Below are positions 3,129 through 15,118 of a stretch of DNA of 20,000 bases, piece after piece. Origin of the DNA: Chiloscyllium plagiosum (lineage: Eukaryota); NCBI RefSeq assembly GCF_004010195.1, contig NC_057718.1, positions 6,477,457-6,497,456 of the forward strand, read 5' to 3'. Under the pieces are notes generated by a model. The model ran no database searches. It was not told the DNA's origin and saw only the letters and a program-made list of their open reading frames with translations. Within the stretch, counting starts at the first letter, position 1, and each line of letters opens with the position of its first letter. A program made the translations under genes and the position numbers.

Positions 3129-3557
3129 TAGAACATAGAACGTAGAAGGTAGAACATTACAGCGCAGTACAGGCCCTTTGGCCCTCAATGTTATGCCGAC
3201 CTCTGGAACCAATCTGAAGCCCATCTATCCTACACTATTCCATTTTCATCCCTATGTTTATCCAATGACCTTAAAGTTGGTGAGTCTACTACTGTTACAG
3301 GCCAATGACCTTAAAGTTGGTGAGTCTACTACTGTTACAGGCAGTGTGTTCCACATCCCTACTACTCGGAGTAAAGAAACTACCTCTGACATCTGTCCTA
3401 TATCTATCACCCCTCAATTTAAAGCTATGTTCCCTCATGCTAGCCATCATCATCCAAGGAAAAAGGTTCTCCCTGTCCACCCTATCTAACCCTCTGATTA
3501 TCTTATATGTCTCAATTAAGTCACTTCTCAACCTTCTTATCTCTAACAAAAACAGCT
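3129..3557 (-). mobile_element. CR1 LINE 3' end (ORF2 C-terminus + 3' UTR), 5'-truncated
   Basis: ORF 3295-3549 gives RRLRSDLIETYKIIRGLDRVD...FKLRGDRYRTDVRGSFF, typical of the CR1 ORF2 C-terminus; (TTCTAYG)-like repeat tail at 3129-3155. Confidence 0.9.
3262..3341. repeat. Exact 40-bp tandem duplication
   Basis: CCAATGACCTTAAAGTTGGTGAGTCTACTACTGTTACAGG at 3262-3301 and 3302-3341. Confidence 0.97.
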
Positions 3558-3585
3558 CAAGTCTGTGTTTGACAACCTAAGATAG

Positions 3586-3783
3586 GATAAAACTGAAAGA
3601 ACTGCAGGTGCTGTAAATCAGAAACAAAGTTAGAAATTGCTGGAAAAGCTCTGCAGGTCTGGCAACATCGGTGAAGAGAAAGCAGAGTTAAGTGACCCTT
3701 TCTCTGAACTCTGTCTTCTCTACATGGATGCTGCCAGACCTGCTGAGCTTTACCAGCAAGTTCTGCTTTTGTTTGTCTCTGAT
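3586..3783. mobile_element. Fold-back element, Penelope pLTR-like family C, centre largely deleted
   Basis: ATCAGAAACAAA...TTGCTGGAAAAGCTCTGCAGGTCTGGCAACATC...CAGAGTT is the imperfect reverse complement of AACTCTG...GATGCTGCCAGACCTGCTGAGCTTTACCAGCAA...TCTGAT; homologous to 7481-7680. Confidence 0.8.
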
Positions 3784-4243
3784 ACATTCTCACACATTAG
3801 GTTATTTAATAAGACAAAGGCCCCCGCTGTTGGAGGTAGAATATTGACTGGATAGAGCATGGCTAACACGTAGAAAACAGAGGATAGGCCATTCTCAGGA
3901 TGGCAACCTGTAATCAGTGGAATGCCAAAGGGATCAGTGCTGGTAATACAATTATTTACAACATGTATTAGTGTCTTGAATGAGGAGAGTGAGTGTATTC
4001 TTGCCAAGTTTGAGGATGACACAAAACAGGTCAGAAGGCAGGAAGTGATGATAACACAAAGAGGAACATAGATCAGTTAAAGCAAATTGAGCAAAAGCTT
4101 GGCAGGTGGAATATAACATTTGAAAATGAGAAATTGTGCACTTTTTAGGAAGAATAGAGGAGTTGAATATTTCAATGGAGATAAACTGCAAAAAGCTGCG
4201 ACACAGGGATTTGGGAGTGCTTCTGCATAAAACACACAAAGCT
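3784..4243 (+). mobile_element. Degenerate CR1 reverse-transcriptase fragment
   Basis: Frameshifted remnants of SGMPKGSVL, LAKFEDDTK (FADDTK motif), WQVEYN, IVHF and RDLGVLLH; parallels the intact copy at 10218-10863. Confidence 0.85.
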
Positions 4244-4559
4244 TCCTCCTCTAATGATGATTCTGCTTGTTCAATTCTCATTCTGGACAGTCTTTCAGTG
4301 ATGTTCAATATGGACCACAAATATGTACACTTGTCACAAAAACCATCCTTCTGTTTTGACACTTGCTTTGGATCTTGAAGAGTAAGTAATTGTAATCCGT
4401 CACCAATTCAAACTCCATGCTGAGAGAGTATTCAGGGAATTTTTCATATGCCAAACCAATCCTCGACCTTTTCAGTTAGCTGAGCGTATCTTCTCTCCAC
4501 GTCTGTCGGAGATCTGCTTGCATAGGCAGTCATTTGTGAATCCACAGCGGGTATTTCGG

Positions 4560-4714
4560 ACATAGGAGAGTACAGCAGAGGATCAGGCCTTTTGACCCAC
4601 TGTACTGACCGTTCTAAACTAATCCCATCTGCCTACACATGGTCCAAAACCCTCCATTCCCTGGCTGTCTTGCATCTGTCTAAAAGCCCTTTAAACATTG
4701 CTATTGTCTCTGCT
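4560..4714 (-). mobile_element. CR1 3' end fragment
   Basis: CTAAACTAATCCCATCTGCCT...GGTCCA..CCCTCCATTCC matches 18530-18580. Confidence 0.75.
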
Positions 4715-5112
4715 GACAGTGTCTGATGTTACTGTATGTGTATTGCCACAACCACAATGGGACATGTCTCTGGTTTTGGTATTTCACTGTGTCCGGGGTA
4801 TCTTGGCGAAGCAAGTCAATCTTTGCTTTAATTTTCCCTGTCAGACCAGATGTTCTGTACACAGGTTGAGCTGCAGATCTCATCTGGAGCTGGTGCAAAT
4901 TCTGAATTTGGTTGAAACACTGGTTGAGACTGCTCTCTGAGCTTCACACAGGAATTCATCAGGTTATAGCACCCTCTTACTTGTGGAGTTCCCTCGCTCA
5001 GAGAGAGTCACTATCCAGTTCAAACACCATGAATTCTGACTCGACAATCTCAATCCCAGCATTCAGGTCCACGATGAAACATTTAATCATTTGAACTGGG
5101 GTTTTAAATGTA

Positions 5113-5383
5113 TCATAGATCCCTACAGTTTGGAAGCACACCATTTGGCCCATTGAGTTCACACCGACCCTCCAAAGAGCGTCTCATCCAGACCCACTCG
5201 ATCCCTATAACTCTACCTATTCTATTCAATCCACCATAACCTGTGCATCTCTGGAGGAAACCAGAGCACCCAAAGGAACACACGCAGACATGGGGAGAAT
5301 GTGCAAGCTCCACGCAGATAATCACCCGAGGGTAGGATTGAACCAGGGTCCCTGATTCAGTGAGGCAGCAGTGCTAACCACTG
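5113..5383 (-). mobile_element. HE1-type V-SINE, older copy with internal deletions
   Basis: GGAGGAAACCAGAGCACC...CAGACATGGGGAGAATGTGCAAGCTCCAC...GTGAGGCAGCAGTGCTAACCACTG is the reverse complement of 2410-2560. Confidence 0.88.
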
Positions 5384-6583
5384 ATAGAGCACTGATAAAG
5401 ACCTATAGAACTTTCTGAATCATTTTTACTATATGCATTCATTTGTCTTTATCTGTTGTGTGTGGGCACCATTGAGTCCAAAGTTATTGCTGCATTAGGA
5501 CCTTGGAGCAACATCACAATGATATCATAGAGTTGCACATCACTGTCTATAAATACCACAGTGAGGATGGAGTTAGAGCATGGAATATTCTGGACATTGA
5601 CTGCACACTATCGAAGTCTACATCAGACGCACCACACCATAAATGTGAACACAAAATGAGGTGGATTAGTCCTTACCTGATATAATGATTTAAAGTTGGA
5701 TGACCATGACTAACATTCCCTCAGAGATTATAAGGAAAAGATTAGTCCCACGTCTGACTCCAACAAGCTGTTTCTTTCGTCTCATCAATCCATGTGATAT
5801 TATCACAGTGGCTGGGCTGGGGCAGGCGTTTGGGAAGGAGTTTTGAATGCTTATTGCACTCAATCAAGTCTTAACTCTTTCAGAACTATACACACCTGAT
5901 ACTCTTTATTAATGTGGAAGGTTCTTCATTGGAAGGTGGGGAATGTGGACACTCTGCCTGTCTCTTAATCACCTCAGGCCCCACTAGTGAATTTGCACTA
6001 AGAGGAGATAATTGCTCACTGTCCTGAGTGGAAATCTGATTCAGCATGGTTTCAACTTCCTCTGTCTATCGCTCGATGTCCTCATGAGTGCTCGAGACAA
6101 TCCAATTACTGCCTGTCTGCTTACAATTCCTCTCAGAGATTGCTGACTGGGAATCTGAACCCTCTTCACTTTTAATAACAATGGAAGACATTTCAACCAA
6201 ATCACTATTGTCACATCTTCCTATCACTGTCACACCCGTGTATAATAAATTATTATCAATTTTGGAATTTCGATTTTACATAAAAAAGAAATGCAGATTG
6301 ATTTTGGTTCGCTCTTTGAGGTAGATTGTTTAAAAGAATATATATTGTTTAGACAATAACTTAAATACATCATTTCTAGGAAGGGAAATGACTTCAGTCA
6401 ACTGCATAGAGGGCCCTCTGGTGAAAATGGATAAACTGTTTATACTCTTGAATTTGTGATAAATAATATAAATGAGATGAGGCAATCAGTTTAGCTTTGA
6501 CTGCATAACAGAAGTTTCAAACTCACCATTCAGAGGAATGTGACATTTGTTCAGAAGATAGGACCAAAAGCAATGGCAGTAGA

Positions 6584-6705
6584 CATGATGTGGAGATGCT
6601 GATGTCGGATTGGGAAGGTCAGAAGTCACACAACACCAGGACATAGCCTAACAGGTCTATTTAAAATTATAGGCTTTTGGAACACAGTTCCTTTGACAGG
6701 TGAAG
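6584..6705 (-). mobile_element. Single decayed arm of pLTR-like family B
   Basis: CATGATGTGGAGATG...AGAAGTCACACAACACCAGG...CCTTTGACAGGTGA aligns to 9473-9600; hammerhead core decayed. Confidence 0.75.
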
Positions 6706-6734
6706 GGTGGCAAATACACGGGATACCCTGCATG

Positions 6735-6935
6735 CTATCCTGATTGAAAGTATCTTGCCATTCCCTCATTGTCATTGGCCCAAAGTTCTGGAGCACATGG
6801 TCTTAACAATTCTATGGCAGCGCCTTAACAACTTGGACATCTTGTAGTTCAAGATGACACTCACTGCCATCTCTTAAAGGACAATTAGTGCGATGAATGC
6901 TGGTCTTGAGCAGCACTCTCATCTCATGAATGAAT
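6735..6935 (+). mobile_element. L2/CR1-clade LINE 3' end (partner of the tRNA-SINE tail)
   Basis: Reverse-complement homologue of 16690-16925; ends ...ATCTCATGAATGAAT. Confidence 0.7.
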
Positions 6936-7032
6936 TGTTTTCCAATCCATGTCGTCCCAAGACACAATTATAGTGGAGCCTTTGGCCAACCAATCTCTAT
7001 CAGTGAGTCCACAATAGATCCAGGTATGAGGT

Positions 7033-7730
7033 GACAACACAAAGTTAGGTTGGAGGGTCAACAGTGAGAAGGATGCAAAGATACATCAGTGTGAATTGTT
7101 TTAGAGAACAAACACATGGAAGATGAAATGCAATGTGGGTAAATGGGAAGTTATCCATTTTAGCAGCAAAAACAGGCAGATGTATTGCTATCTGAATGAC
7201 AATAGATTGGGCAAGGGATGGACGGTACAATGAGATTTGGGTGTCCTTGTATGCCAGTCACTGAAGGTAAGCACTGCAGGTACAGCAGGCAGTGAAGAAG
7301 GTCAGTGTTGTTTTGGCCTTCATAGCGAGAGAGTTCGAGTACAGGAGCAGGGATGTCTTGCTGTAATTGTACAGGGTCTTGGTGAGACCGCACTTGGAAC
7401 ATTGTATGCAGTTCAGAAGAATGAGGGGTTTGCCATAGAAACCAATACAATTCTAACAGAAAAAGACTGGGTAATGCAAGAAGAAACAAAAACAGAAATT
7501 ACTGGAAAGTCCCAGCAGGTCTGGCAGCATCTATGGAGAGAAATCAGAGTTAAATTCTTGGGCCCAGTGCCCCTTCCTCAGAATGGAGCCTTCAGTTCTG
7601 AAATGATTACTGGACCGGAAACGTTAACTCTGATTTCTCTGCACCAAGGCTGCCAGACTTGCTGAGCTTTTCCAGCAAATGTCAAAGGGCTGAATGGCCT
7701 ACCCCTATTCCTACTTTCCATGATTCTATG
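7033..7730 (+). mobile_element. Degenerate CR1 ORF2 fragment (7033-7483) and 3' tail (7681-7730), separated by a fold-back element
   Basis: Remnants of WKMKCNVGKWEVIHF, DLGVLVCQSLKV, LYRVLVRPHLEHCMQF then RRMRG (internal deletion); tail AAGGGCTGAATGGCCTACCCCTATTCCT...ATGATTCTATG. Confidence 0.85.
7481..7680. mobile_element. Fold-back element, pLTR-like family C, with two decayed hammerhead motifs
   Basis: Arms ~7497-7553 and ~7624-7680 are imperfect inverted repeats. Minus-strand CTGAGGA-A-GGGGC-ACTG-GGCCC and plus-strand GTT-CTGA...GGACC-GGAAACGTT-AAC lie between them. Confidence 0.82.
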
Positions 7731-8230
7731 TGAAAAAACCTCTGAGTGCTGGAAAGCTGTGGGAAATATACATCCAAATTTACAGGCACCACCAACCTTG
7801 TGTCATGGCTCCATTGCTCACATCCTGAAACATTATTTTCACCTCTTAGTTTGCTTCCCCATCTGCCTCTCCTTTCCCAGTTCCACTCACTTTGAATCAA
7901 TGTTGTGTTTCAGCCAAATTCTCAGACACATAAGGGTGTCCTGCCAGAAAATAAATTACTGAACTATCCAATCCACTTTCCTGAACCACAGCCTTGGGCA
8001 TGGGGTGAGTAGTTCATCTCATTTCATTCCAAATCTACCGCACTGTGGCTGGAAAAATGTGAAAACGTGTTTCCAAAATTTCAAAGATAACAATAAGAGA
8101 TGCCACTGTTTTATTTACACATTGTTCCCCACGGTCCGATTTGGGGACAACCAGATCCTGACCGAACTCTCCAAATGATGGCAAGGATTTCTCTTACCGT
8201 ATTACATCGGTGACGGCGTGTCCAAATCTC

Positions 8231-8450
8231 GGAGGAAGTGGGTACTGCAGATGCTGGAGATTAGAGTCAAGATTAGAGTGGTGCTGTAAAAACACAGCAG
8301 GTCAGGCAGCATCTGAAGAGCAGGAAAATCGATGTTTTGGGCAAAAGCCCTTCATCAGGAATGAAAGGTTTTTGCCCGAAACATCAATTTTCCTGCTCTT
8401 CAGATGCTGCCTGACCTGCTGTGCTTTTCCAGTACCTCTCTAATCTTGAC
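8231..8450. mobile_element. Fold-back element, pLTR-like family A, with target-site duplication
   Basis: 90-bp arms 8266-8355 and 8361-8450 (8 mismatches, 5-nt spacer); flanked by GCGTGTCCAAATCTC (8216-8230) and ACATGCCCAAATCTC (8451-8465). Confidence 0.9.
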
Positions 8451-8465
8451 ACATGCCCAAATCTC

Positions 8466-9445
8466 ATCAATTCTAAGCATTGAAGAATGTCAGCCAGTCC
8501 ACACTATAACAAAGTCTCGTATATCAGCCCACACCACCACCTATATATGTTGGAGAGTCTCTGGAATATGTAAAGTACTTCCCATACCTTAGCAACCATC
8601 TTTATCACAAAGTCAACGGCAATGTCCAACTAGTCAACCACACCAGCTAGGCCTTGAATGTACTCCAGCAGTAACTGTTTGGCTTGACAATAAGGACTAC
8701 CATGAGTCAACAGCAGGCACAATACAAAGGGCAGTTATGGCCATCACACTCTTGTACAGCAGTGAGTACTAGATTATGTAGCAATGACACAGAAAGGTGC
8801 GAGAGAAACTCCATCGGAAATACCTCCACCACATTCTCCAGATTTTATGGGATGGCCATTGAACAAATATGGTCACCTTTCTTGAATGCCAGCATTCAGC
8901 CTAACTTCTCCAAAGTCAGCTTTGATAGACTGAAAAATGTGTCAGGAAAGGTCCCACACAAGATACAAAGGAATATTGATTATTACGCACTCAACTAACC
9001 AAATTTCAGTTAATCTGAACATGATCGTAAGGTCCAGATGCTTGGCTAAACTATGTTATCCGGCATTCAATTATCTGGCATTCGATTAAGCAAATGAAAT
9101 ACTCCCCACCCTTGTCTTTTTGGATAATCGAAGTTCCTCTGTACTGTTTTGCCAATGGCCAGCTGTCCAGAGACAGTCAAAGAAAACTCCTCAAAGATCC
9201 TCTGAAGCTCTCCTTGAGGCCCGGTTGAATGACATAAATGATGGGGAGGGGCTCGTGCGAGACTGGGGAGGGCGATGACCTGTCCAGCAAACTGTGTCAT
9301 GCTTTGAGTGACAATGTGGTAAAAATCAGATAGAGAAACAGCCAAGAAGGAAGGAAAACGATGTCAATGTGAATCCTGCTGCCTTATGGGACTTTTCACT
9401 CGATCGCTGCCAGTCAGGATTTGTTGAGTCACATGAGGGCCCCAG
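8466..9445 (+). mobile_element. Ancient RTE-clade LINE ORF2 3' half, heavily decayed
   Basis: Frame remnants ESLEYVKYFPYL, AVMAITLLYSSE, EKLHRKYLHHILQILW, NGQLSRDSQRKLLKDPLKLSL and LSHMRA occur in RTE ORF2 order, with many stops and frameshifts. Confidence 0.75.
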
Positions 9446-9472
9446 GCAGAAACATCTGACCTGAGTAGGTGG

Positions 9473-9691
9473 CATGATTTGGAGATGACGGTGTTGGACT
9501 GGGGTGTACAAAGTTAAAAATCACACAACACCAGGTTATAGTCCAACAGGTTTAATTGGAAGCACACTAGCTTTCGGAGCGTCGCTCCTTCATCAGGTGA
9601 CTGTCATCACTGAAGGAGCAGCAGTCCGAAAGCTAGTGTGCTTCCAATTAAACCTGTTGGACTATAACCTGGTGTTGTGTGATTTTTAACT
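9473..9691. mobile_element. Fold-back element, pLTR-like family B, with target-site duplication
   Basis: Perfect 67-bp inverted arms 9512-9578 and 9625-9691; flanked by CTGAGTAGGTGGCAT (9461-9475) and CTGAGTACTTGGCAT (9690-9704). Confidence 0.92.
9565..9599 (-). ncRNA. Minimal type-I hammerhead ribozyme motif (Penelope-type)
   Basis: Minus strand reads CAC CUGAUGA A GGAGC GAC GCUCC GAAA GCUA GUG: both core boxes, 5-bp helix II, palindromic AGCU at helix III, CUA triplet and 3-bp helix I. Confidence 0.8.
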
Positions 9692-9792
9692 GAGTACTTG
9701 GCATCCTTAAATCTTCGGAACAGTTTACAATGATATTGGGTCTATTTTACACCTTCCTGATATCACTCCTTTGCCTCTTTTCAAGCCACAAT

Positions 9793-10124
9793 ATCATAGA
9801 ATCTCAACAGTGTGGAAGTTGGTCATTCAGCCCATCAAGTCCACACCAACCCTCTTGAAGAGCATCCCACTCCCAGACTCATGCCCTATTCCTGTAACCC
9901 TGCAATTCCCGTGGCTAATCCATCTAGCCTGCGCATCTCTGAACATTGTGGGTAATTTAACATGGTCAATCCACCTAACCTGTGGGAGGAAACCGGAGCA
10001 CCCGGAGGAAACCCACACAGACACGGGGAGAATGTGCAAACTCCACACAGGTAGTCGCCTGAGCATGGGATCGAACCTAGGGCTCTAGCGCTCTGAGGCA
10101 CCAATGCTAACCACTGAGCCACTG
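9793..10124 (-). mobile_element. HE1-type V-SINE
   Basis: Reverse complement of head, V-domain (GGAGGAAACCGGAGCACCCGGAGGAAACCCAC...GGGGAGAATGTGCAAACTCCACAC) and CR1-like tail (ATTCTATGAT). Confidence 0.9.
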
Positions 10125-10217
10125 AAATAGACACTTCCTTTTTTCCACATCTTTGATCTGTTTACCAACCCCCCCCCTCCAATATTCAAAGCATCATCCT
10201 CTGCTGATTCTGCCAAT

Positions 10218-10863
10218 TTTAGTAAGGCGTTTGATAAGGTTCCCCATGGTAGGCTACTTCAAAAAATACAGAGATATGGCATTGAGGGTGAGTTGGAGGT
10301 TTGGATTAGGAATTGGCTGGCTGGAAGAAGACAGAGGGTAGTAGTTGATGGTAAAGGTTCATCTTGGAGTGCAGTTACTAGCGGTGTTCCGCAAGGATCT
10401 GTTTTGGGACCATTGCTGTTTGTCATTTTTATAAATGACCTGGAAGAGGGGTTAGAAGGTTAGGTGAGCAAGTTTGCGGATGATACGAAAGTCGGAGGAG
10501 TTATTGACAGTGAGGAAGGATGTGGCAGGTTACAGCAGGATATAGAGAAGCTGCAGAGCTGGGCAGAAAGGTGGCAAATGGAATTCAATGTAGCTAAGTG
10601 TGAGGTGATTCACTTTGGGAAGAATAACAAAAAGATGGGGTACTGGGCTAATGGTCGGATACTTGGTAGTGTGGATGAGCAGAGGGATCTTGGTGTCCAT
10701 GTACACAGATCTCTGAAAGTTGCCACCCAGGTAAATAGTGCGGTGAGGAAGGCATATGGCGTACTGGCTTTTATTGGTAGAGGAATTGAGTTCCGGACTC
10801 CTGAGGTCATGATGCAGTTGTATAAGACTCTGGTGCGGCCGCATCTGGAATACTGTGTGCAGT
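10218..10863 (+). mobile_element. Young 5'-truncated CR1 LINE, RT domain, runs into the gap
   Basis: One frame: [14 protein letters not shown]...[15 protein letters not shown]...[31 protein letters not shown]...RPHLEYCVQ; single TAG at 10461-10463, no frameshift. Confidence 0.95.
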
Positions 10864-11153
10864 NNNNNNNNNNNNNNNNNNNNNNNNNNNNNNNNNNNNN
10901 NNNNNNNNNNNNNNNNNNNNNNNNNNNNNNNNNNNNNNNNNNNNNNNNNNNNNNNNNNNNNNNNNNNNNNNNNNNNNNNNNNNNNNNNNNNNNNNNNNNN
11001 NNNNNNNNNNNNNNNNNNNNNNNNNNNNNNNNNNNNNNNNNNNNNNNNNNNNNNNNNNNNNNNNNNNNNNNNNNNNNNNNNNNNNNNNNNNNNNNNNNNN
11101 NNNNNNNNNNNNNNNNNNNNNNNNNNNNNNNNNNNNNNNNNNNNNNNNNNNNN
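10864..11153. other. Assembly gap (290 N)
   Basis: Run of N. Confidence 1.
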
Positions 11154-11313
11154 CAATCTCCCCCCTTCCCTGGCTTTGAACTTGTTGTCGATTTCTTACA
11201 TTTTTAACTTTTTCCAGTTCTGGGGAAAGGCAATCAGCCTGAACTCTGCTTTCCTTTCCATCGATGCTGCCAGGTCTTTTGAGTATTCTAACATTTTCTG
11301 CAGTTAACTTCAG
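11154..11313 (+). mobile_element. Penelope-like 3' end / single pLTR arm related to family C
   Basis: TTCCAGTTCTGGGGAAAGG...AACTCTGCTTTCCTTTCCATCGATGCTGCCAGGTC...GAGTATTCTAACATTTTCTG resembles the right arms of 3586-3783 and 7481-7680; pyrimidine-rich leader. Confidence 0.65.
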
Positions 11314-11409
11314 CCTCTACCATGCTCTATATTTTGCTTTTGTAACATTTGAACACCCAGGTGATGACCAGGATCACAAGGCATTCAAGTTGGCTTTGGG
11401 TAATAATTT

Positions 11410-11531
11410 GGATTAAAATAATGTGCAAGGTGTAGGGAAAAAGCAGGAAACTGGCTCTTGGTAATGAGGCTCATTTGATGAGGCAGTGTAGGGCTGATTA
11501 GCCTCTTTCTGTGCTGTGATAACTCTGTGAT
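11410..11531 (+). mobile_element. CR1 3' UTR fragment
   Basis: GGGAAAAAGCAGGAAACTGG...GGGCTGATTAGCCTCTTTCTGTGCTGTGATAACTCTGTGAT tail pattern. Confidence 0.65.
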
Positions 11532-11736
11532 CTTGAGTAGATCACCCAGTCATTCAAGTCTGCTCTGCCATTGCAACAGATCATGGCTGAGGTGACTTGG
11601 TCATCAACTCCACATTCCTGACTAGACTGATAACCTTTCACCCCATGGCTTATAGAGAATCTAAATACCTTAAAAATATTTAAAGATTCTACCTCCATTG
11701 CCTTTGAAAGAACAGAAGTCCAACCCTTGCAGAGAA

Positions 11737-11860
11737 GGTCAACCCTCAGCCTCTGACACTGCAGGGAAAACGGCCCCAATTATTCAGCCTCACCCTGTAG
11801 CTCAAACCCTCCAACCCTGGCAACAACCTTGTAGATTCTTTCTGCACCTTTTCAAGTTTT
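11737..11860 (-). repeat. Inverted local copy of 12107-12229 flanked by a 16-bp direct repeat
   Basis: 118/123 identity to the reverse complement of 12107-12229; CAACCCTTGCAGAGAA at 11721-11736 and 11861-11876. Confidence 0.95.
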
Positions 11861-11925
11861 CAACCCTTGCAGAGAACCAAATTGTCCTTGTCTCTGTCTT
11901 CAGTGGGTCACCCCCCTCTCCCCAC

Positions 11926-12779
11926 TTTTTGTTTATTTGTTAATGGGCTGTCGGCATTGCTGATTGGTCAGCATTTATTGCCCATCCCTATTTGGCCAGA
12001 GGACAGTAAAGAGTCAACCACATTGCTGTGGGTCTGGAGTCACAGGTAGGCCAGACCAGGTAAGGATGGCTAATTCTGCTCTCCCTGCTCAAGGAAAGAT
12101 GTTGTTAAACTTGAAAAGGTGCAGAAAGAATCTACAAGGTTGTTGCCAGGGTTGGAGGGTTTGAGCTATAGGGAGAGGCTGAATAGTAGGGGCCATTTTC
12201 CCTGCAGTGTCAGAGGCTGAGGGTTGACCTTATAGAAGTTTATAAAATCATGAGGGGCATGGTTAGGGTAAATAGACACAGTATTTTCCCTAGGGTAGGG
12301 AAATTAGAGGGCATAAGTTTTAGGTGAGGGGGGGAGATTTAAAAGGGACCTGAGGGGTAACTTTTTCACACAGAGGGTAGTGCGTTTATGGAATGAGCTG
12401 TCAGAGGAAGTGGTGGAGGCTGGTACAATTACAACATTTAAAAGGAAATTGGATGGGTATAGGAATAAGAAGGGTTTAGAGACATATGGCCACATGCTGG
12501 CAAATGGGACTTGATTAATTTAGGATATCTGATCAGAATGGATGAGTTGGACTGAAGGGTCTGTTTCCGTGCTGTACACCTCTATGACTCTACATGGGTT
12601 TTTGCAACAGTTGTCAATGGTCACCTGGTTGTTATTAGTTCTGTTTTAATTTACATTTTTTAAAAATTGAATCCAAATTTCACCATCTACTACAGTGGGA
12701 TTTGAACCCCTGACCCCAGTGTATTAGCACGGGATTCTGAATTACTCTATGGCAATGTTGCCACTACACCACCACCTCC
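11926..12779 (-). mobile_element. tRNA-derived SINE (same family as 2149-2797), pieces 11926-12070 and 12594-12779
   Basis: Aligns with 2149-2406; reverse-strand B box (GGGATTTGAACCCC) at ~12697-12710. Confidence 0.85.
12071..12592 (+). mobile_element. CR1 LINE 3' end (ORF2 C-terminus + 3' UTR)
   Basis: RKDVVKLEKVQKESTRLLPGLEGLSYRERLN...QRLRVDLIEVYKIMRGM...FFTQRVVRLWNELSEEVV; tail CTCTATGACTCTA. Confidence 0.93.
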
Positions 12780-13399
12780 CTTTGAGCAGTCACCCCTTGT
12801 TGTAGATTTTCTCACCGAAGGAACCATCTTCTCAAAGACCAGCTTGTCAGATCCCCTCAAGGTCTCACATGTTTTGATCAAGTCACATTTTACCCTTCGG
12901 AACTTCAGCGGATACAAGTCTAGCCTGTCTGACCTGTTAAAGCTGAGGTTCAACTGACCAATTCCAATCAATCCCATGTCATTCCAATAAAAACAGCAAA
13001 TTTCCTGGCCAGGACATTTTCCCAAGCTACTAAAATCAAAAGGAAGAACCCTCCAAATCATTTTGCCTAGTGACTGGGTCTTCAGGTATCTTAATCATTG
13101 ACCGAGAATATGTTCCTCGTCTGAAGTGCCTCTCTCCTCCTCAGTAAAATGTACCTCCTTTGAGCATCCTTGTCCCACCTGTTGGCCTTTTGTGGTAGCT
13201 ATCTGTGAGCCAGGAGGCCTGGTTTCTAGTCCTACATTACTCCACAGTTGTGTGATACTATCTCTGAATGTGTTGCTTGAAAATATCTATTGCCATCCAT
13301 TCATATTTGCTCCTTAATTGATCTTGTGGAAAAATACTGATCTGATTTCTCTTACGTGAAGTTTCTTTGGATGTTTTACTACATTATGTTGAAGCTAAG

Positions 13400-13971
13400 A
13401 TCAAGAAAGCACAACAACATCTCTACTTCCTCAGGAGGTTAAGGAAATTCAGCATGTCCATAAAGACGCTTACCAGTTTTTGTAGATGCACCATTCCACA
13501 TTAATGCATTACAATTTGGTATAACAAGTGCTCTGCCCAGGATCATAACAAACTACAGAGAGTTGTGAACACAGCCCAGTCCATCAGGCAAACCAACCTC
13601 CCATCCATAAACTCCATCTACATTTCGCAATGCCTCGGAATGTCAGCTAACATCATCAAAGACCCCTCCCATCCTGGTATAATCTCTTCCATTGGGCAAA
13701 AGGTACAAAAGCTTAAACACACGTACCGTCAGATTCAAGAACAGCTTCTTCTCTGCTGTTATTGAACTCCTGAATGGACCTCTCAACTTTTAAATTTCAT
13801 GTTGATCTCAGTCTCTGTGCCCTTTCTCTGCAGTTGTAACATTGTATTCCTCACTCTGTTCTATCACCCTAATGTACTTTGTATGGTATGATCTGCTGGT
13901 ACTGCATGCAAAACAACACTTTTCACTGAATCGAGGTACTTGTGATGATAATAAATCAAATCAAATCAAAT
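13400..13971 (+). mobile_element. Rex1/Babar-clade LINE 3' end
   Basis: KKAQQHLYFLRRLRKFSMS...CITIWYNKCSAQDHNKLQRVVNTAQSI...IIKDPSHPG...RFKNSFFSAVIELLN; (AAATC)n tail. Confidence 0.9.
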
Positions 13972-14393
13972 ATTAACAGTGATATATATATACAGCTGAG
14001 GTTGTAGGTTAAAATTCCACCACAGCAAGTGATACACCTTAATTCATTGGATCTGTTGCAGCTTGATATCAAAGTCAAAACAGGTTCATTGCTATCTCTC
14101 AGAGATGCAAGTCAGACAAACTATGACCAACTCAGAAGCAGCCTGTGGGAATTATTATTGCAGGTTGTTTCACTGGCTAGGAAGGAACAAATGCTAATTA
14201 GGAGAGAAATTCCAGAAATAATCACAAATGTTTAGACCAATTAGCAGAGATGGGGTCTGCAGAGGTACTTGTTCCAGGTAGGACTAGCCTTCATAAGCCA
14301 TGAATAGTGCCTCTATTGTGGTGATCAGCAATCAATGCTGTTGGTTTCCAGTCAGGCTGCTTGAGTTATTCCACCCTTGTTCTCACTCTAGCT

Positions 14394-14730
14394 AGTCAGA
14401 AGTCACATGACACCAGGTTACTGTCCAACAGATTTATTTAAAATCACAAGCTTGCAGAGTGCTGTTCCTTCATCAGATGAAGCATACATGATGAAGGAGC
14501 AGCACTCCGATAGCTTGTGATTTCAAATAAACCTGTTGAACTATCACTTGGAGAAAGTGAGGACTGCAGATGTTGGAGATCAGAGCTGAAAAATGTGTTG
14601 CTGGAAAAGCGCAGCAGGTCAGGCAGCATCCGAGGAGCAGGAGAATCAGGCATAAGCCCTTCTTCAGGAAGGAGTCATGTGACTTCTGACTTTGTCGACC
14701 CTGGTCCAACACCAGCACCTCCACATCATG
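14394..14730. mobile_element. Fold-back element family B with a nested family A arm
   Basis: AGTCAGAAGTCACATGAC...CCTTCATCAG is inverted as TGATGAAGGAG...CTATCACTTG and, after the insert, GTCATGTGACTTCTGACT; ends CTCCACATCATG. Confidence 0.85.
14550..14670 (-). mobile_element. Single pLTR-like family A arm
   Basis: GGAGAAAGTGAGGACTGCAGATG...CAGCAGGTCAGGCAGCATC...AAGCCCTTCTTCAGGAA aligns to 8231-8361. Confidence 0.87.
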
Positions 14731-14919
14731 GCCACGAGGGAGATATGTAAGTTTGATTTTGGCACCACTTCTTGCAGAACACCATGGCAGAAGGATACTT
14801 TCAAACCTTTCTGGTTCCCCCCACCACCTCTGTCTTCCAAACTTACCAATCCTTCCCTGGTCACTGTTATATGATATCTCCACACAATCCAGCCCTTTTT
14901 TCTCCGTTGAAGCTGTCTT

Positions 14920-15118
14920 GAAGTATTTCAATGAAATAGTTTTTGTGAATCAGTGGAACTCACTATCCAAAGTGTGGTCGATGCCAAAACACTGAATAGT
15001 AATGAGTTAAACAGAAATGGAGAGCAGGCAGGCAGGAGGTGAAATCAGTGAATATCATGTTAAATGGCAGAGCAGTCCTGAGGGGATGAATGGCCTACTC
15101 CTATCCCTTGTTCTTATG
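14920..15118 (+). mobile_element. Degenerate CR1 3' end
   Basis: VNQWNSL remnant; tail TAAATGGCAGAGCAG...GAGGGGATGAATGGCCTACTCCTATCCCTTGTTCTTATG. Confidence 0.75.

Follow-up and report, generated by a model that had tools for sequence, protein, structure and literature searches.

Insertions of Penelope-like elements (PLEs) are known to carry an inverted, 5'-truncated copy of themselves together with a short "tail" at just one of their ends (Craig et al., 2021, PMC8557442). According to another account, the tail sits on one of the inverted pseudo-long terminal repeats (pLTRs), the pLTR contains a TATA box and an initiator, and pLTRs suffice in trans (Arkhipova et al., 2013, PMC3846280); start sites within pLTRs are also on record (PMC6765202). 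An Anolis PLE studied in vitro has two internal start sites spaced by the tail, both target strands being nicked and extended, and it bears a hammerhead at the start of its open reading frame (ORF), the cleavage of which is not needed (Frangieh et al., 2024, PMC11167929). The mechanism of PLE integration is largely unsolved. Although the inverted copies and the one-sided tail are on record, an explanation for them is lacking. Here we analyze a stretch of 20,000 nucleotides from Chiloscyllium plagiosum (assembly GCF_004010195.1, contig NC_057718.1, positions 6,477,457 to 6,497,456, forward strand), referred to below as the window, in which short ORF-less repeats occur between positions 3586 and 14730. 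Several of them are fold-backs, that is, two inverted arms arranged head to head, with a hammerhead motif near the centre. We contend that these repeats are probably miniature insertions made by the reverse transcriptase and endonuclease of PLEs, a single short RNA with two start sites serving as the template on which each of the target strands is primed.

Copies, ends and abundance in the genome

The searched genome comprises 3.56 Gb, and for each query the best 30 loci (24 aligned in the case of family A) were taken out of the first-look candidates. Three families, A, B and C, are distinguished. The family C fold-back returned 3188 first-look candidates, and the 30 loci listed match it nearly full-length at 85-91%. 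For family B there were 1933 candidates, with the listed loci at 90-94%, and for family A 1780, with the listed loci at 74-83%. When the copies are aligned together with their flanks, the outer ends are sharp and common to 30 C, 30 B and 24 A genomic copies, and direct repeats flank them. Target-site duplications (TSDs) with at least 10 matched bases were found in 55 of 99 fold-backs, compared with 2 of 1959 controls, for which left and right flanks from different copies were combined; their commonest length is 12-13 bp and they range from 10 to 18 bp. Single arms carry TSDs of their own. The segments are defined units, distinct from chance hairpins.

A sample unselected for shape is provided by the 279 kb of flanking sequence of these loci, which contain 20 further fold-backs and 59 single arms. 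These 79 incidental elements per approximately 260 kb compare with one endonuclease fragment, which extrapolates to an excess of about 80 to 1 over PLE ORF ends. The total may be of the order of 10^5 to 10^6 copies, or a few percent of the genome, a rough figure given that the sample adjoins chosen fold-backs.

Arm structure and the position of the tail

Read in the sense of the ribozyme, an arm runs outward from the centre. It starts 3-14 nt upstream of the hammerhead core. Short arms end at an inner site, about 90 nt downstream, and long arms reach an outer site that lies a further 35-40 nt away, for an arm length of 90-135 nt. A fold-back joins two such arms, as a rule one of each kind, between TSDs of about 10-16 bp. 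The difference between long and short arms is the known PLE tail, as it is described in three studies (PMC8557442, PMC3846280, PMC11167929), and this match supports the reading of the segments as extreme pLTR-only insertions.

How the two kinds of arm are paired was scored in those unselected fold-backs that lie away from locus edges (n=19). A long arm is combined with a short one in 16 of them, two short arms are present in 3, and two long arms in none. Of the 49 single arms that could be classified, 20 are long; random pairing therefore predicts 48% long-plus-short, and the probability of at least 16 such fold-backs out of 19 under random pairing is 0.0014. A further fold-back (L016), the arms of which are about 50 nt longer, is also one-tailed and has a symmetric centre.

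The pairing of arms bears directly on snap-back self-priming, in which a single cDNA would fold back at the 5' end of the RNA and copy itself without separate priming of the second strand. Self-priming has been inferred from palindromes at inverted PLE junctions (PMC3846280), and arms made in this manner would be identical at birth, in agreement with the private variants that the arms of one fold-back have in common (see below). However, a snap-back should copy the tail as well and thereby produce two long arms, which were seen in 0 of 19 unselected fold-backs and in only 2 of 81 targeted ones, although the targeted copies were picked by their likeness to a long-plus-short query and are unfit for testing arm pairing. 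Moreover, the end of the short arm coincides, to within a few bases, with the site where untailed single arms end, and nicking plus extension of both strands has been shown in vitro for a PLE (PMC11167929). Snap-back is in our view quite an improbable origin for the fold-backs as a class. One family C fold-back, L025:1466-1717, does have two long arms, and the sequences on either side of it likewise form inverted complements for at least 16 nt, as an unchecked snap-back would give; this copy is either a snap-back product or an assembly artefact.

A palindromic shape is also what miniature inverted-repeat transposable elements (MITEs) of DNA transposons, or generic hairpin and microRNA loci, would present, and microRNA hairpin models of Rfam do match the segments below their gathering scores. 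Repeat annotators would probably file the fold-backs under one of these labels. However, the TSD length is variable, single arms have TSDs too, the two ends are asymmetric by the tail of 35-40 nt, the arms are continuous with PLE 3' untranslated regions (UTRs), and no Rfam family is matched at its gathering score. It is hardly credible that the fold-backs belong to either kind, and a MITE with symmetric terminal inverted repeats and short TSDs of fixed length was rejected on the one-sided tail, the variable TSDs and the TSD-bearing single arms.

The hammerhead motif

In the majority sequence of each family, CUGANGA is followed by a single unpaired base, a helix II with complete pairing, GAA, a palindrome of 4 nt and H. 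Helix II is GGGUC/GACCC with a loop of 4 nt in family A (palindrome ACGU, H = U), GGAGC/GCUCC with a loop of 3 nt in family B (palindrome AGCU, H = A), and GGGC/GCCC with a loop of 4 nt in family C (palindrome ACGU, H = C). Family B differs from A and C by compensatory changes in helix II and by a swap of C-G to G-C at 15.2/16.2, a comparison that covers two independent lineages only. The minimal hammerhead reported for PLEs in PMC4209133 has an extra base after A9, a G10.1-C11.1 pair, a palindromic 15.2/16.2 and no helix III; all three families fit this type, and the motif is a predicted ribozyme. Copies decay with age, the full motif being kept in 51 of 69 arms of family B, 31 of 75 of family C and 17 of 61 of family A. 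Under strict criteria, the motif was hit 67 times in the 279 kb, with all but one of the hits (66) within elements, and not once in any of 10 Markov resamplings. Rfam, when run on the window, reported no hammerhead at gathering scores or at E values up to 10, and only sub-threshold microRNA hairpin models. For an intact copy (L035) the best model was HH10 at 13.9 bits, compared with a gathering score of 75, which is expected because the motif lacks helix III.

The intact hammerhead consensus in three families, with its compensatory changes in helix II and at 15.2/16.2, would suit a retrozyme-like cycle in which self-cleavage defines the RNA unit, which is then circularised and copied. Animal retrozymes have also been tied to PLE pLTRs in a recent preprint (Li et al., 2026, 10.64898/2026.07.22.740005). 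The arms, however, already start before the core and extend across the cut site, and their ends are therefore not set by self-cleavage; 36 of 52 single arms start at most 5 nt from the arm start, and few start near positions 29-39. The copies are dispersed; neither the repeat scan of the window nor L019, a locus with four A-like arms, revealed tandem arrays. No pile of read ends at the cut site is listed for the RNA reads described below (run X21), a weak test in that a poly(A) single-cell library could hardly reveal ribozyme-cut ends. Furthermore, unprocessed RNA is the substrate of the PLE enzyme (Frangieh et al., PMC11167929). The initial annotation had offered a retrozyme-like or SINE-like class (SINE, short interspersed nuclear element) with ends set by self-cleavage as one explanation, and the evidence of the cut site, the arm starts and the absence of tandem arrays from these searches does not support it; we regard such a cycle as very improbable here.

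Relationship to Penelope-like elements

Some single arms run upstream into sequence that is common to several copies. At L080, the end of an ORF lies upstream of a C arm and was read by eye as the C-terminal half of a GIY-YIG endonuclease. The peptide has at least 150 scored matches out of 39,875 first-look candidates, and a C-type arm is located 70-270 nt past the ORF in 5 of 5 fetched loci (6 of 6 with L080 included). At one locus, L063, a different GIY-YIG ORF, which is frameshifted and represents a different PLE lineage, precedes a family B arm by about 580 nt. The arms are continuous with PLE 3' UTRs, and their 3' end matches PLE ends, unlike the tail of a LINE (long interspersed nuclear element). 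The descent from Penelope that had been proposed from the window, in the form of extreme pLTR-only insertions with an inverted copy, is supported by the C arms downstream of the GIY-YIG ORF at L080 and the five other loci and by the B arm at L063.

A complete insertion between 16-bp TSDs is present at L092. It consists, in this order, of an inverted partial copy with a tail, a direct pLTR, a hammerhead, an ORF, endonuclease motifs, a 3' UTR and a second hammerhead with an arm that ends at the short site. An ATG is found within the helix II loop of the first hammerhead, and the inverted copy ends at the template position where the direct copy begins. The endonuclease stretch is 87% identical to P0002, the nearest Atlas clusters of which carry HTH_animal, GIY-YIG and RVT_1. 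A Pfam search of the whole genome for GIY-YIG gave one weak, unrelated hit. In comparison with such insertions, the arm corresponds to the module at the pLTR/ORF junction of a full PLE. Upstream of the core, the parents of family B have TATAAA at 40 nt and those of family C a weaker AT-rich box at 37 nt; this TATA-like box of the parent is absent from the fold-backs, and the 5' end of the arm may be the start site of the pLTR promoter.

A separate rearrangement was noticed in the 3' UTR of a PLE at L095:299-440. Here, an inverted short arm of a C subfamily and a direct stub of 14 nt take the place of approximately 120 nt. The insert adjoins the element's own arm, which belongs to another C subfamily, and the resulting chimeric junction is perhaps due to template switching.

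Transcripts of family B

Raw reads of a poly(A) single-cell library (run X21) were mapped on positions 9380-9800 of the window, which include a family B fold-back, at 90% likeness. In total, 1964 reads fall on the B element and none on its unique flanks, and 772 reads with poly(T) end at 9536 or 9539 (minus-strand RNA). The sense RNA is therefore polyadenylated 12-15 nt after an AUUAAA within the arm, upstream of both cDNA start sites, and it follows that the 5' leader is the only part of a polyadenylated mRNA in which the start sites are retained. No pile of read ends is listed at any position. B-type PLE transcripts exist. Run X22 contributed no reads. Contigs of uncertain kind from runs X1 and X3 also match family B arms in this interval at 90-99% and with very high word depth; as the two runs are labelled as two coded organisms, family B is common to more than one species label.

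Origin of the two arms

The two arms of a fold-back have private variants in common. With CpG sites left aside, the values for arms of one fold-back and for arms of different fold-backs are 0.72 and 0.36 in family A, 0.36 and 0.09 in family B, and 1.14 and 0.19 in family C, and the observed value was reached in 0 of 200 permutations in every family. The parseable centres all differ from copy to copy in family C (7 of 7) and in family A (8 of 8). Shared private variants and differing centres, taken together with the one-tail rule and the symmetric centres in L016 and L092, suggest that both strands prime on one RNA, each at a start site of its own.

On this basis, we consider it probable that the segments are miniature PLE insertions, and the following course of events is proposed. 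The recognition module would be carried by a short transcript of a PLE or by the leader at the 5' end of its mRNA, and the PLE enzyme would nick both strands of the target. From each nick, cDNA synthesis would be primed on this one RNA, at the inner start site for one strand and at the outer for the other, and both cDNAs would extend to the 5' end of the RNA, where each could be completed on the other to give the head-to-head pair. If only one strand were primed, a single arm would result. The common start of the arms, 3-14 nt before the core, would correspond to the 5' end of an abundant RNA, and the hammerhead would simply travel as part of the module without setting the ends.

The sharp and identical ends in 30, 30 and 24 copies might also be explained if the fold-backs were self-propagating, non-autonomous lineages, each with a master hairpin that is transcribed whole and copied in trans by PLE enzymes from the tail end to a fixed 5' end of the RNA. 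The same centre recurs in 13 of 30 family B copies, which such a master would account for. The main family C arm lacks an open frame from the ATG of the CUGAUGA box and is not simply the coding leader of an intact PLE, and hammerhead repeats derived from pLTRs have been proposed as non-autonomous partners of PLEs in the preprint cited above (10.64898/2026.07.22.740005). Centres differ, however, in every parseable C and A copy. Nor is a master hairpin easily reconciled with arm majority sequences that are exact complements without arm-specific fixed differences, with private variants common to both arms of a copy, or with a long-plus-short rule that holds equally in the independent L016 fold-back and in the full-length L092. 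The parent's TATA-like box is missing from the fold-backs, and RNA reads crossing from one arm to the other were not seen in any number in X21. We consider propagation from a hairpin master unlikely.

Several observations weigh against priming of both strands on one PLE-derived RNA, the reading that we prefer. The shared centre of family B is one of them, as it could be due to a hairpin master just as to a 5' end that is sharply fixed. Three of the 19 unselected fold-backs were scored as short-plus-short; one of these is the copy at 14394 in the window, the tail of which lies beyond an inserted C arm, and this brings the long-plus-short count to 17 of 19. In the L051 fold-back, the helix II loops differ between the two arms. 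On the protein side, the GIY-YIG hit of P0002 in Pfam is sub-threshold (17.7 bits against a cut-off of 22.6), Pfam gave no GIY-YIG hit on the short endonuclease ORF pieces, and the body of the L092 ORF reads N, so that the parent reverse transcriptase is not visible. Family A is tied to PLEs only through its homology to C (97/121). The putative start site is proposed from the TATAAA of the B parents and the weaker AT-rich box of the C parents. Lastly, 851 of the X21 reads run from the arm start into the PLE 3' UTR and not into the other arm, and they do not represent the proposed short RNA.

It is conceivable, if rather doubtful at present, that PLE integration is a concerted reaction in general, in which one ribonucleoprotein primes two strands at two sites of a single RNA, the two cDNAs are finished on each other, and leader-only fold-backs are the default product. 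The near-obligate combination of a tailed with an untailed arm, the symmetric centre and the shared private variants would point to such a concerted event. The default product would follow from a recognition module at the 5' end of every PLE mRNA combined with polyadenylation, as in family B, before the 3' start sites. If this were true, the genome would have been seeded with 10^5 to 10^6 near-perfect hairpins amounting to a few percent of its DNA (extrapolated).

Repeats in the window

Reading of positions 3400-15000 and a repeat scan confirmed the short ORF-less repeats at the places given by the initial annotation, and BLAST with the majority arm sequences of families A, B and C (135, 128 and 129 nt) was used for the census. 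The kinship of A and C and the distinctness of B were recognized correctly at the outset: the homology of A and C extends over the entire arm and its tail, with 97 of 121 aligned bases identical (score 96, shuffled maximum 16), and the likeness of B to them is confined to the ribozyme core. Other claims made from the window hold in part. Of eight segments ascribed to three families, seven were assigned by BLAST, and the one at 11154 fell below the threshold and is A-like by eye. Five fold-backs had been described as a longer plus a shorter arm; all five are fold-backs and four are long/short, and the copy at 7482 has two short arms. TSDs of about 15 bp had been noted in two copies, and they measure 15 bp with 2 mismatches at 9473 and 9-13 bp at 8231. 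The hammerhead with a paired helix II specific to each family is present in all three majority sequences, and within the window it is intact in one arm only.

The first fold-back (3589-3774) belongs to family A and was delimited by BLAST (query 31-133 and 33-100) and by an inverted repeat scan. Its left arm is long, with the tail, and its right arm short; the first ~30 nt are absent from both arms and the hammerhead is gone with them. Just upstream, an exact 40-bp tandem duplication occupies 3262-3341. The family B single arm with a tail at 6584-6703 (minus strand, query 1-128) is an old copy, 70% identical to the family B majority sequence, with decayed hammerhead boxes. The family A fold-back with two short arms extends over 7482-7678 (query 1-102 and 1-85), and the hammerhead boxes are partly decayed in both arms.

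The next two fold-backs were each identified by BLAST and as inverted repeats. The family C fold-back at 8231-8450 consists of a long arm with the tail at 8231-8358 (sense minus) and a short arm at 8359-8450 (sense plus), between the TSDs of 9-13 bp. The family B fold-back at 9473-9697, flanked by the TSD of 15 bp with 2 mismatches, has its long arm and tail at 9473-9602 (sense minus) and its short arm at 9606-9697. It contains the sole fully intact minimal hammerhead motif of the window, at 9568-9596 on the minus strand, composed of CUGAUGA, an extra A, a 5-bp helix II, GAA, AGCU and A.

The decayed A-like single arm lies at about 11212-11320 on the plus strand. A run of N at 10865-11153 adjoins it, and the sequence upstream of the arm is unreadable. 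At the far end, a family B fold-back made up of a short arm and the inner part of a long arm (14394-14551; BLAST, inverted repeat) is interrupted by a family C single arm with a tail at 14550-14667 (minus strand; BLAST). This C arm sits inside the long arm of the B fold-back without a clear TSD and is of the CUGAAGA subfamily, to which the arms of the complete PLE insertion at L092 also belong. The B fold-back resumes with the remainder of its long arm and the tail at 14671-14730 (plus strand, query 69-128).

Other repeats are interspersed among these elements. A LINE-type reverse-transcriptase fragment, recognized by eye from its translation, covers 10200-10864 and runs into the 289-base N run. 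Three copies of another short interspersed repeat, 77-87% alike and with a tRNA-like end, are found at 2418-2562, 5277-5384 and 9980-10124; a likeness to 'Deu'-type SINEs is presumed. An inverted repeat of 125 nt (11735-11859 and 12107-12231) has halves that are 96% complementary and 247 nt apart, and it is unrelated to families A-C.

Comparison with known systems

In twin priming of LINE-1, both target strands prime on one RNA and an inverted segment results. The segments come from different parts of the RNA and form no palindrome, whereas in the fold-backs both segments cover the same module. Non-LTR retrozymes (LTR, long terminal repeat) were reportedly treated for animals by Cervera and de la Pena in 2020. 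Like the present elements, they are short and non-coding, bear a hammerhead, descend from PLE pLTRs and presumably depend on PLE enzymes for their mobility (Li et al., 2026, 10.64898/2026.07.22.740005). They form head-to-tail tandem arrays and are thought to pass through a cleaved, circular RNA; the copies described here are dispersed, single or head-to-head, with ends that ignore the cut site.

The solo and opposite-strand hammerheads reported by Cervera and de la Pena (2014, PMC4209133) share the core features and a short helix I and are located mostly outside full elements. That work goes no further on the solo and dual motifs than 'truncated PLEs'; the present analysis defines the unit together with its ends and TSDs, and adds the one-tail rule. 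We found no description of these fold-backs in cartilaginous fishes in the open-access literature, and Repbase or Dfam may already catalogue the families.

The classical PLE insertion has an inverted copy, a tail of 30-40 bp at one end, variable TSDs and a hammerhead in the repeat, as do the present elements (PMC3846280; Craig et al., 2021, PMC8557442). Its full-size form is present in this genome as L092. In the fold-backs everything between the repeats is missing, and each arm is reduced to a stretch of 90-135 nt between hammerhead and cDNA start sites. For the PLE studied in vitro, the start sites lie ~110-150 nt downstream of the hammerhead, and the tail is the stretch between them, as is the case here (Frangieh et al., PMC11167929). 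That system showed no start-site difference between the strands, whereas the genomic copies suggest that one site of each kind is used per insertion. The miniature fold-backs are the simplest record of the PLE reaction, with one short template, two ends and one junction, repeated thousands of times, and their ends could reveal whether the two published start sites serve one target strand each. The fold-backs are the known PLE architecture with all else removed, an ordinary but very abundant by-product.

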